Both the position numbers and the translations under genes were made by a program. Under the pieces are notes generated by a model. That model was not told the DNA's origin. It saw nothing but the letters and a program-made list of their open reading frames with translations, and ran no database searches. This document shows positions 5,630-7,566 of a stretch of DNA of 7,566 nucleotides, piece by piece. The stretch comes from a virus. Taxonomy: Duplodnaviria; Heunggongvirae; Uroviricota; Caudoviricetes. The DNA lies in IMG/VR virus record IMGVR_UViG_2698536559_000017, one strand, 5' to 3'. Each line of letters begins with the position of its first letter. Within the stretch, counting starts at the first letter, position 1.

Positions 5630-5803
5630 ATGAAAACAAAAAACGTAAGGGCCGTACTTCTGGCCCGTGAACAGATAGAGCGCCTTGAGCGGATCCGCAA
5701 CGACGAAGCTGCACGCTCAGCCTACGGCATCAGACCAACCATTCACGAAGTAGCCAGAAAACTCATTGATGAAGCGCTGAATAAAGGGAGCTGTAATGCC
5801 TGA
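5630..5803 (+). CDS. small protein (57 aa), first gene of the operon; possible DNA-binding regulator
   Basis: Not in the ORF track because it is under 60 aa. ATG 5630 has GGAGG 6 nt upstream. It translates to MKTKNVRAVLLAREQIERLERIRNDEAARSAYGIRPTIHEVARKLIDEALNKGSCNA. The stop at 5801..5803 overlaps the next ORF's ATG 5796. The helical, charged character suggests a small regulator or antitoxin-like protein, but no family is recognised. Confidence 0.55.
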   Translation: MKTKNVRAVLLAREQIERLERIRNDEAARSAYGIRPTIHEVARKLIDEALNKGSCNA

Positions 5804-6656
5804 TTTTTTTGGTTATTCGCAATACCTGGGGATCAAGGGTATTTCGCACCTTCTGGGGGGAAGGAGGAAATCCGGAAAAAAATCAAAAAACGCCTCACAG
5901 GCGGCAGTCGGCCAGCAGCCATCAGCTCGCCATAATGCAAAATCCAGGAACAAAGAGGAAAACAACGTGAAAATGTCTTTTTTACATCTCAACAAGGGCC
6001 GTCATGCTGGCGCGGACAACTCTGGCGATACCGTTAATCAGCCTGATGTTCCTGACATCAGCGAAGTAAAGGGCGCTGAATCCCTCTTTCGCAGCAACGA
6101 GCCTGAACCGTTACCCAAAAAACACACACGGGAACATAACGTTTCCGTTTCGGAGGAAGCAAAAAGTAATCCGGTTCTTGCTCTCCGACTTCTGCGGACA
6201 ACCGACCTGAAATCATCCGTCATCATCAAAAAACTACGCGAAGAACCCGAGGCTATTACCGCTTTCACTGAACGGCACATGACAGAGAATTCACCGGAAT
6301 GGGAGTTCGTCAGCGATGAAGACAAAGCCCGTCAGGCGATGATTTATTCGATGGTTAACGATGACAGCAACGGCTATAGTTCCGGCAAGACCGCAGCGCT
6401 GAAAGTGCTGGATGGAATGCGCGACAACTACATAACACAGTCTGAGTTTGATCTCTCGCTGGCGCTTTACAGGGAAAACAACCCTGAAACCCGTCGTATA
6501 GAGGCCAAAAAACTACAGGAGGAATATGCCCGAAAAGCTGCCCGCGAACACGTCAGATACCACCAGGAACTGAAAAAAATCGGACAACAGGTTTCACCGG
6601 ATGACCTGGATGAAGACAAGGTTTACGAAGCCATGAAGCAAAGGTACGCAATATGA
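5796..6656 (+). CDS. hypothetical protein (286 aa), paralog A of the pair; Lys/Arg/Ser-rich N-terminal extension
   Basis: Open frame of 286 codons, with its start overlapping the upstream stop. The first ~59 aa are low-complexity and basic; an internal ATG at 5973 is preceded by GAGGA and is an alternative start. Residues about 125..215 are paralogous to ORF 6653..7315. Confidence 0.7.
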   Translation: MPDFFGYSQYLGIKGISHLLGGRRKSGKKSKNASQAAVGQQPSARHNAKSRNKEENNVKMSFLHLNKGRHAGADNSGDTVNQPDVPDISEVKGAESLFRSNEPEPLPKKHTREHNVSVSEEAKSNPVLALRLLRTTDLKSSVIIKKLREEPEAITAFTERHMTENSPEWEFVSDEDKARQAMIYSMVNDDSNGYSSGKTAALKVLDGMRDNYITQSEFDLSLALYRENNPETRRIEAKKLQEEYARKAAREHVRYHQELKKIGQQVSPDDLDEDKVYEAMKQRYAI

Positions 6657-7315
6657 TATCCAGCCAGCGCCCAGATGAGCAAAGCCCTTTTGCCATTGCG
6701 TCGCCGCCTTATTCAGGCGGCCCCCTCAGTGGCTGGCAATACCATTCAGTCGCACAGGATGACGAGCATGAAGGCGGGCTGGCATCCGTCAGAAAATCAA
6801 ATCCGGCGCACTGCATAGCCACGCATCCGAAGGCAAGGCATAACCCTGTCCTGGCCTTTCATCTCATTCAGTCGGGGGCTAATTTTGCTTATGCAGACAA
6901 ACAACTCAATAACAGTCCCCGCAAACTTTCCGGCTTTACGGATCGTTTTATGGAACGACGGGTGAGCGGCTGGGAACTTTTTTCAGATGAAGAACGCAAC
7001 CTTGCAGCCTTTGCCCGTTCAACATCATTCAACGACGATAACGGCTATATGGCCTCCATGCGTGCCGCTGAAAGGGCACTACAGCGTTATGTTATCCCGC
7101 TAACGCTTAACGAGATGGTCAGGAAAGCCAAAGCCCTTTATGACGATCAGCATCAGGCACAGATTGACGCAGGCCACCAGAGACTGAAACAGATGTTTGA
7201 GAACATGGGATATACCTGGACACCACCGGAAGATCAGAAAGAACCTGACGGTGAAGTAAACAGAAATCCCCAGTATACAGGTGTTTATTTTCGGGATATG
7301 AGTACAGGAATATGA
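6653..7315 (+). CDS. hypothetical protein (220 aa), paralog B of the pair
   Basis: ATG 6653 overlaps the upstream stop (ATGA). Shared motifs with paralog A are NPVLA, FT[ED]R[HF]M, W-E-[FL]-[VF]-SDE-[DE] and NDD-[SN]-GY. No recognised family. Confidence 0.7.
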   Translation: MISSQRPDEQSPFAIASPPYSGGPLSGWQYHSVAQDDEHEGGLASVRKSNPAHCIATHPKARHNPVLAFHLIQSGANFAYADKQLNNSPRKLSGFTDRFMERRVSGWELFSDEERNLAAFARSTSFNDDNGYMASMRAAERALQRYVIPLTLNEMVRKAKALYDDQHQAQIDAGHQRLKQMFENMGYTWTPPEDQKEPDGEVNRNPQYTGVYFRDMSTGI

Positions 7316-7566
7316 GCAGATACAGAAAAAACAAAGTTGTTGCCTCCGGCCTTGCTGAAAGCTGGATGCTTGCGGCGAAAAAAGTCACCGATCGCGTGTT
7401 TGGTGAAGGGTATGCAAACGCACACCCCGAACTGATAAGCGCATTCATGACAACGGCGGCGACAAGCTTTGCCACACTGAACGGTCGTGAGGCAGCCGAA
7501 GCAGCTGAGCTTGTCAGTATTAACGTGAAGTGTGACAGCGGCACGCTGACTGATGAACGGGGTTGA
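7312..7566 (+). CDS. hypothetical small protein (84 aa), fourth coupled gene; intact copy of the fragment at 3642..3782
   Basis: ATG 7312 overlaps the upstream stop (ATGA). The stop TGA at 7564..7566 coincides with the window end. Product is MSRYRKNKVVASGLAESWMLAAKKVTDRVFGEGYANAHPELISAFMTTAATSFATLNGREAAEAAELVSINVKCDSGTLTDERG. Confidence 0.6.
   Translation: MSRYRKNKVVASGLAESWMLAAKKVTDRVFGEGYANAHPELISAFMTTAATSFATLNGREAAEAAELVSINVKCDSGTLTDERG

Follow-up and report, generated by a model that had tools for sequence, protein, structure and literature searches.

CpmB of SaPIs, the pathogenicity islands of Staphylococcus aureus, is a scaffolding protein that competes with the scaffold of the helper phage. 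SaPI operon I is controlled by LexA and ends in the small-terminase gene terS, and interchangeable capsid-size switchers (Ccm, CpmAB, or Rcm) are encoded before terS (PMC12409344). Amongst phage-inducible chromosomal islands (PICIs) of Gram-negative bacteria, EcCICFT073 carries int, alpA, and pri, next to which its ori is located, as well as a packaging protein derived from TerS and two cos sites that differ in cosB (PMC6739421), all of which are also seen in the element described here, and Pectobacterium PICIs have an accessory region next to pri (PMC11364771). No capsid-remodelling factor of Gram-negative PICIs was found in the literature searched. Here we describe a four-gene operon on a stretch of DNA of 7,566 nucleotides (IMG/VR record IMGVR_UViG_2698536559_000017; the whole stretch is called the window), which belongs to a PICI-like satellite of Escherichia coli. 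The four plus-strand open reading frames (ORFs), previously read from the letters alone as 57, 286, 220, and 84 aa long, were found at the same coordinates in the ORF list and the sequence:

5630-5803, plus strand: 57-aa gene, the conserved first gene of a trio, with a basic product of isoelectric point (pI) 9.9 (ORF list)
5796-6656, plus strand: gene A, 286 aa (ORF list)
6653-7315, plus strand: gene B, 220 aa (ORF list)
7312-7566, plus strand: 84-aa gene, PHROG 1231 (ORF list and PHROGs)

The trio formed by the first three genes is a concrete candidate for capsid remodelling, as it occupies the position of the SaPI capsid switchers, is kept in many genera, and can be linked, albeit weakly, to the scaffold-position protein of a candidate helper phage. 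A and B may be satellite scaffold-like proteins that redirect or block capsid assembly of the helper, a reading to which we give slightly less than an even chance. In a more specific and more tentative proposal, A and B would represent a new class of alternative scaffold, derived from the N-terminal half of the helper scaffold and fused to a domain with a fold of no known relative, that remodels or blocks procapsids. To our knowledge, this would be the first capsid-morphogenesis hijack known for Gram-negative PICI-type satellites, and its genes would be part of an operon that is wired to SOS or PerC and crosses cos.

The kind of element and the existence of a helper-exploitation operon that ends in terS are already known. 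Like SaPI operon I (cpmA, cpmB, ptiA/B/M, and terS), the operon described here appears to end in a small-terminase gene and has a LexA-type promoter in 11 of 19 relatives, and the trio takes the place held in SaPIs by small helper-interference and capsid-assembly proteins ahead of terS. In contrast to SaPI operon I, A and B resemble CpmA, CpmB, Pti, and Ppi in neither sequence nor fold; packaging is of the cos type instead of headful, the operon probably spans cos, and the lineage of the window lacks the LexA box. The weak resemblance to the helper scaffold lies in the N-terminal and central parts and not in the C-terminal part. The small protein-A-B trio is not described in the papers on Gram-negative cos PICIs (PMC6739421; PMC11364771), and the trio, the fold of B, the cos-crossing operon, and the putative link to the helper scaffold-position protein are likewise undescribed in the family and structure libraries and the literature searched.

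Conservation and Position of the Trio

The genes of the operon are chained by overlaps (8 nt at 5796-5803, and ATGA at 6653 and 7312), and a Shine-Dalgarno-like sequence precedes each of the four start codons; the tight coupling proposed in the sequence-only reading holds. That reading had also recognized no known family in any of the four products. Pfam, NCBIfam, PHROGs, and PADLOC likewise gave no family for A, B, or the 57-aa protein, but the 84-aa ORF is a member of PHROG 1231 (E = 1.5e-23). BLASTP aligns A with B at 31% identity over 98 aa (E = 3e-13), which shows the two to be paralogs, and the motifs quoted for them (NPVLA, FT.R.M, W-E, and D.NGY) are invariant or nearly so across 28 family members, which divide into a long A-type and a short B-type. 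The reported difference between the N-termini is also real, as residues 1-59 of A are basic (pI 10.6, net charge +9), whereas residues 1-49 of B are acidic and rich in Pro, Ser, and Gly. In A, the basic extension, which is missing in some lineages, is followed by an M-S-F-L-H-L motif, a linker, an acidic helical core (~110-215), and a long C-terminal helix. In B, the N-terminus leads into a basic helical core (50-150, pI 9.4) and a long helix (152-184), such that the cores of the two proteins are opposite in charge.

The claim that A and B form an undescribed family was upheld. An A/B profile gave 0 matches to PDB sequences, a profile search of 1.84 billion proteins returned only 30 representatives of the A/B family, and clusters at 90% identity amongst 5.8 billion proteins numbered 17 for A and 7 for B, all from Escherichia. 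No significant match to B was found by tblastn in 50,697 phage records. AlphaFold2 with the 28-sequence alignment predicted residues 50-190 of B as all-helical with a predicted local distance difference test (pLDDT) score of 90-98; the model of A, from a shallow alignment, was unusable (pLDDT 47). Since the core of B is confidently folded and its model has no similar structure in PDB or BFVD, it represents new structural territory whichever function is right.

The order small protein-A-B is kept in loci L002-L008, L011, L014, L015, L018-L025, L094, and L148, which were collected from contigs with distant members and from a scan of 100,044 species genomes with an A-only alignment. These loci come from Escherichia, Pectobacterium, Xenorhabdus, Hafnia, Raoultella, Rahnella, Edaphovirga, and other genera, together with an Enterobacterales metagenome-assembled genome, and Morganella (L016) has a degraded copy of the arrangement. 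The first protein of the trio is 54-58 aa long in the relatives and clearly homologous to the 57-aa protein of the window. Of the four genes, the 57-aa gene, A, and B travel together across genera, whereas B is followed by the 84-aa gene only in the E. coli lineage. This gene, a lineage-specific passenger, is a paralog (54% identity) of one that is normally located ahead of ssb.

The operon had been placed in the cargo region of its element, which the comparison contradicts. In ~20 satellites, the trio has a fixed place upstream of, and next to, cos and the TerS-like gene, and the genes that vary (SIR2, SocA_Panacea pairs, Abi_C, or ProQ/PerC) are found between primase and trio. The primase type and the integrase vary as well. 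These neighbors, the primase, and the integrase change while the trio stays, and the trio behaves like a core part and not like cargo.

This fixed position bears directly on whether the operon is instead an accessory defence, abortive-infection, or toxin-antitoxin (TA)-like module with the 57-aa protein as antitoxin or repressor and A and B as effectors. A small gene for a basic protein, overlapping a larger downstream gene and preceded by a palindromic operator, does resemble a type II TA layout; SIR2, SocA_Panacea, and Abi_C are defence-like neighbors, and SOS control is also known for some TA systems. The hotspots for defence genes lie next to cos in P4-like satellites and downstream of pri in PICIs (PMC11364771). 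However, the constant position and order of the trio across differing primases, integrases, and cargo is the opposite of hotspot behavior, and the trio appears to be co-transcribed with the TerS-like gene. PADLOC gave no match, and neither a toxin or enzyme family nor a similar fold was found for A or B. A type II TA pair would be expected to have a recognizable antitoxin fold and a known toxin family; no such fold was found for the 57-aa protein, and A and B match no family in Pfam, NCBIfam, and PADLOC. A and B are also unrelated to the tail assembly inhibition (Tai) protein TaiEcA, which is phi80 orf63 (hhalign probability 0.1%), as well as to phi80 orf66, and only 3 of 120 IMG/VR contigs with the 15-mer of cosN carry A/B, two of them being satellites. 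A defence role is accordingly regarded as improbable.

The slot of the trio can hold other genes. Two sibling E. coli satellites (L030 9645-12175 and L031 9671-12364) share a backbone of PHROG 1231, SSB, and PHROG 1561, and what they encode in the slot of the module is a major capsid protein of the lambda E type, a decoration protein of the gpD type, a scaffold-like protein, and a TerS of the Nu1 type. Major capsid, decoration, and scaffold-like proteins thus occur here in an interchangeable slot, as Ccm, CpmAB, and Rcm do in SaPIs. The 68-aa gene heading the capsid-type operon of L031 was considered as a homolog of the 57-aa gene; its layout is the same and the motif upstream of it is similar, but no homology could be detected.

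Tail genes (tail assembly chaperone, tape measure, fibre, and fibre-assembly protein) separate B from TerS in some loci. Related satellites of other genera carry their own homologs of the tail assembly chaperone, lytic-transglycosylase tape measure, tail fibre, and fibre-assembly protein of the helper, and no PICI-type satellites with such tail components were found in the literature searched. The tail-gene homologs on satellites are as follows:

L005, 11343-13523
L008, 5352-8927
L011, 11286-12478
L021-L023
L026

A and B could be late-operon factors of helper exploitation that act on tail assembly, as partners of tape measure or fibre or as chaperones, or on the terminase and cos machinery, and we consider this unlikely. 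B stands directly before a tape-measure homolog, with no tail-chaperone gene between them, in L014 and L021-L023, and the two genes overlap in L021 and L022; elsewhere, the trio adjoins a tail assembly chaperone and tape measure, or fibre and fibre-assembly genes. It always abuts cos and the TerS-like gene. In L010, the only true prophage seen with a B-type domain, the B-domain protein is flanked on one side by a minor tail protein (phrog_1924) and on the other by a fragment that resembles the C-terminus of a tape measure. At L010 9947-11247, an unrelated N-terminal domain is fused to the B-type core and is followed by a 110-aa protein with a tape-measure C-terminal motif (E = 1e-7). An ORF of Morganella (L016 9709-10209) joins a B-type N-terminus to a tape-measure C-terminus; both are recombinant forms. 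Against a tail role, the E. coli lineage carries the trio without tail genes, as do several others (L007, L020, and L025), and A and B have no similarity to tail assembly chaperone, tape measure, or TerS families. Their core residues are invariant across satellites of differing TerS and cosB types, so a TerS-specific role is unlikely, and the only helper protein picked up by the A/B profile is not a tail protein but the one in the scaffold position.

Candidate Helper Prophage and Its Scaffold-Position Protein

Amongst 5,426 complete E. coli genomes, 3 have the operon, and its chromosomal site differs between them; a rare helper-type prophage is present in 10 of the 5,426, including all three that bear the satellite. 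If satellite and prophage were independent, the chance of this co-occurrence would be ~5e-9 by our own arithmetic. In addition, one cos site of the satellite (cos2) is 97% identical to the cos of a prophage elsewhere in strain ‘numer 3’, and the TerS and tail genes of the satellites are homologous to genes of the helper prophage. This prophage is thus the candidate helper, which may induce, package, and transfer the satellite, and the presence of both in the same sequenced strains provides a natural pair for study. The candidate helper loci are:

L154: NZ_CP027550.1, 3.866-3.908 Mb, in the strain of the window
L153: NZ_CP141863.1, 1.155-1.173 Mb

The prophage appears to be at least ~40 kb in size, as estimated from L154. 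The early part of L154 has lambdoid early genes and a LexA-family repressor, followed by a lysis cassette, a minor tail protein, and cos. After cos are encoded TerS (phrog_57), a GpA-type TerL, gpW, portal, an S49 protease, a protein of 190 aa, a decoration protein, and a major capsid protein of the lambda E type, and the tail is of the Mu-like contractile type, with a lytic transglycosylase domain in the tape measure. In the prophage copy of strain ‘numer 3’, the A and B genes of heat-labile enterotoxin II are located inside the lysis region.

When the A/B profile was compared with all helper ORFs, the sole match outside the A/B family was the 190-aa product encoded after the S49 protease and ahead of the decoration protein, at the place of a scaffold. 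The family of this protein (PHROG 6382), represented by 25 sequences from phage contigs with the same cos, has an N-terminal F-x-F-A-H-L-(L/I)-G-(L)-K-K, a charged linker, and the segment ‘ER.RCA.IF.S..AA.NP.LA..LAF.T.MS...A..L’. A and B have D-F-S-H-L (A also has L-L-G-L plus basic residues), a variable linker, and the segment ‘H..H..A.S.EA..NPVLA..L...T.LS..I..L’. Both families combine an F-x-(A/M/S)-H-L-(L/I/V)-G motif, a charged disordered linker, and a helix-loop-helix ‘NP.LA..L...T.(M/L)S’ in the same order, whereas the regions after the common motif are unrelated, and only A and B continue into a helical domain of ~70 residues with the invariant FT.R.M, W-E, and D.NGY.

Comparison by hhalign gave an E-value of 2.5e-4 (probability 43%, 42 columns) for the alignment of A and B against the 25 scaffold-position proteins and 1e-3 (probability 21%, 48 columns) for an A-only alignment against the same family. 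In a search of 10,409 six-frame ORFs with a hidden Markov model (HMM) of the scaffold motif, the top five non-scaffold matches were all A proteins, and A or B made up 14 of the top 33 although their family accounts for only 0.4% of the ORFs. One of the 28 family members matches phrog_6382, the family of the helper protein, amongst 38,880 families (E = 8e-4), and the A and B of the window itself reach no threshold in the PHROGs scan. Each of these signals is weak, and they agree in direction.

Control of the Operon and Proposed Mechanism

The operon was thought to have an operator-like promoter of its own, and this was supported by a palindrome whose arms match at 14 of 16 positions across a spacer of 15 nt. 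The features upstream of the 57-aa gene are:

5453-5477, plus strand: intrinsic-terminator-like hairpin and T-run, which ends the upstream ProQ/PerC unit (terminator prediction)
5494-5513, minus strand: opposite-strand terminator-like hairpin (terminator prediction)
5560-5575, no strand: left inverted-repeat arm GTTTCATTAATCGCAA, putative operator half-site (inverted-repeat comparison)
5583-5591, plus strand: extended -10-like TGtTATCAT in the palindrome spacer, putative promoter core (direct sequence reading)
5591-5606, no strand: right inverted-repeat arm TTGCAATAAATGAAAC (inverted-repeat comparison)

The two hairpins together would insulate the operon. The element at 5583-5591 is kept as TGcTATCAT in L002 and L003, and a consensus promoter scan called no promoter there. 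The paired motif of the palindrome arms, 31 nt apart, is also located upstream of the small gene in L002, L003, L005, and L011, and inverted pairs of TTGCAATWWATGAAAC precede the first gene in several lineages. Moreover, 11 of 19 loci have a LexA-box-like CTG-N10-CAG 24-34 nt before the start codon of the first gene, compared with 0.13 per kb in the background. This box is missing from the E. coli lineage and L007, which have a PerC gene upstream in its stead. PerC-family genes are located upstream of the trio in exactly four loci (L001-L003 and L007), none of which has a LexA box (window 5142-5414; L007 1639-2058), and the helper prophage L154 has one at 7128-7622. The loci are few and not phylogenetically independent, and the substitution of PerC for the LexA box in the E. 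coli lineage is a lead and not a result.

Homologs of the 57-aa protein head the trio in every lineage and have 18 invariant residues, and this protein is a putative DNA-binding autoregulator. It has no Pfam or PDB match, and a small-protein profile gave only noise against PDB. A ribbon-helix-helix fold is a guess.

The trio would open the late helper-exploitation operon of the satellite, which would correspond to SaPI operon I. LexA cleavage would, in most lineages, switch the operon on together with the SOS-inducible helper prophage, and in the E. coli lineage, PerC rather than LexA would time expression to helper induction. The 57-aa protein would bind the palindrome overlapping the promoter and autoregulate the level of the operon. 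The stop/start overlaps may yield similar amounts of A and B, which would pair; the acidic core of A and the basic core of B would suit a heterodimer. The scaffold-like N-terminal and central segments of A and B could join or compete in procapsid assembly of the helper, and their own C-terminal domains, in place of the scaffold C-terminal part, may change the outcome. The simplest outcome would be capsids sized for the 17-kb cos-to-cos genome, or alternatively, helper heads may be blocked.

Alternatively, A and B may be Pti-like or Psu-like regulators of late-gene transcription in the helper or the satellite, acting outside virion assembly. SaPI operon I also encodes pti genes that interfere with phage reproduction (PMC12409344), the N-terminal extension of A is strongly basic, and PerC takes the place of the LexA box in the E. 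coli lineage. We hold this to be very unlikely, as no DNA- or RNA-binding or regulator domain was detected in A or B with Pfam and NCBIfam, the basic extension is not present in all lineages, and the weak similarity that does exist is to a head-assembly protein.

Several points weigh against scaffold-like A and B. The similarity is weak by hhalign probability, the HMM match is biased by low complexity, and the N-terminal F-x-H-L motif alone is too short, its HMM being not significant. The 190-aa protein of the helper is called a scaffold only because of its position and a partial match to a PHROG with the annotation head maturation protease, and in many lineages the trio adjoins tail genes and not head genes. 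In EcCICFT073, of all cos PICIs of E. coli the best studied, Rpp redirects packaging and the capsids are phage-sized (PMC6739421), so small capsids are not obligatory. The helper TerL is annotated as frameshifted in the strain of the window, in the same assembly in which A is split. The interaction of A with B and the binding of the palindrome by the 57-aa protein are predictions, and a scan of 19 loci for LexA boxes found none in the window, L002, or L003. Lastly, the 57-aa protein was compared with ribbon-helix-helix proteins (Arc, Mnt, CopG, ParD, and NikR), and the alignment was in register but not significant, with an hhalign probability of 2.5% against 46-96% for the controls.

The Satellite Element and Its cos Sites

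The element of ~17 kb encodes, in order, int, DUF6387, AlpA, an Icd-like protein, DUF4222, a primase-helicase, an iteron origin, SSB, ProQ/FinO, PerC, the four ORFs of the operon, cos1, a 50-aa and a 126-aa gene, a 177-aa TerS-like gene, and cos2. On this gene content, it is an integrative, cos-type, PICI-like satellite with a P4-alpha-type helicase. Sequence features that characterize PICIs are present, including an integrase (Pfam Phage_integrase and Arm-DNA-bind_3) with AlpA (Phage_AlpA, E = 4.8e-16), a primase (D5_N, DUF5906, and Pox_D5) with an adjacent iteron origin, a packaging determinant (TerS-like gene and two cos-like sites), and a size of ~17 kb, where ~10-20 kb is expected. Dense direct and inverted CTGTTCACC-type iterons at window 3194-3408 directly follow the primase stop codon and are probably the replication origin of the satellite. 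No capsid, tail, or lysis genes were annotated over the ~17 kb of L001. The satellite also encodes its own SSB and a ProQ/FinO-family RNA chaperone (window 4121-5145), which are regarded as unusual cargo for a PICI-like element.

The element had been taken for a P4-type one, and this was not confirmed. By tblastn, only the C-terminal helicase part of alpha, Vis/AlpA, and Int of P4 match, and since Sid, Delta, Psu, and Epsilon have no match, the element is a PICI-like satellite and not of the P4 type. Like P4, it is a satellite of E. coli whose primase-helicase is alpha-type (51% identity to residues 320-771 of alpha), and it shares with P4 a Vis/AlpA homolog, an integrase, and cos packaging. 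Unlike P4, whose record has no TerS-like gene, it has a TerS-like gene of its own, and its candidate helper has a lambda-type head and a Mu-like contractile tail, whereas that of P4 is P2. In the late operon of P4 (sid-delta-psu), both sid and psu are ‘Psu-like’ by RefSeq product name; A and B were considered as relatives of Sid or Psu and rejected (hhalign probability 1.5% for Sid and 0.1% for Psu).

In all satellites and in the related prophage L010, the stretch from B or the tail genes to TerS contains a conserved GGGTCC(T/C)TCC - ~20 nt - ACGGGCATTGCGCGCCG - AGCTAT - TTTTGAAATTTG, after which come direct repeats that vary with the type of TerS. The conserved sequence and the repeats can be read as cosQ/cosN plus cosB. 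The two sites of the element are:

cos1: L001 17095-17290, ~30 nt past the end of the window, assigned from the conserved cosQ/cosN-like core
cos2: L001 22125-22380, assigned from the same cosQ/cosN-like core, with different cosB repeats

The cosB repeats are TTTACAC at cos1, beside the TerS-like gene, and TGTCCCA at cos2, as in helper-type phages. The TerS-like 177-aa protein belongs to phrog_57 (E = 1.8e-13) and is homologous to the helper TerS over its full length. It is encoded in tandem with a second TerS-derived gene (L001 17435-18345), as the 126-aa protein that precedes it is homologous to the C-terminal half of the helper TerS. Having a TerS-length gene (phrog_57) together with a homolog of the C-terminal half of TerS, the satellite appears to differ from EcCICFT073, in which Rpp is found. 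From the promoter to the end of the TerS-like gene, no plus-strand terminator was predicted in L001, L008, and L024, and terminators flank the unit. Therefore, the four-gene operon is probably the first part of a longer one, in which transcription would run on across cos to the TerS-like gene. The Pectobacterium PICIs described in PMC11364771 may belong to the same element group as L014.

The window matches the chromosome of E. coli 2015C-4136CT1 except that one 95-nt tandem unit is lacking near 3597 and the run at 5855-5860 is longer by one G. The second difference affects gene A:

5855-5860, plus strand: G6 homopolymer inside A, G5 in the RefSeq record of the same strain (record comparison)
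5967-5975, plus strand: possible internal start in A, with in-frame GTG at 5967 and ATG at 5973 and GAGG before (sequence)

In the RefSeq record (NZ_CP027550.1), A is split into 57 and 229 aa because the run has one G fewer. This may be either an assembly error or a slippage-prone tract, and an intact A of 286 aa is also present in 19 other sequences (P0008). The internal start could yield a form of 227-229 aa beginning at the F-L-H-L motif. A Shine-Dalgarno-like sequence and an ATG are located ahead of this motif in seven lineages, and short forms of A are found naturally in L003, L020, and L025.

The 84-aa protein was also considered as a tape-measure fragment, but BLASTP gave nothing and the sole hint was a PHROG match at E = 0.06. 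The tandem 95-nt repeats at window 3532-3750 (ORF fragments at 3526-3782) are a decayed PHROG 1231 gene, the original copy on the ssb side, and their copy number varies, as there is one unit less in the window than in the RefSeq record of that strain.

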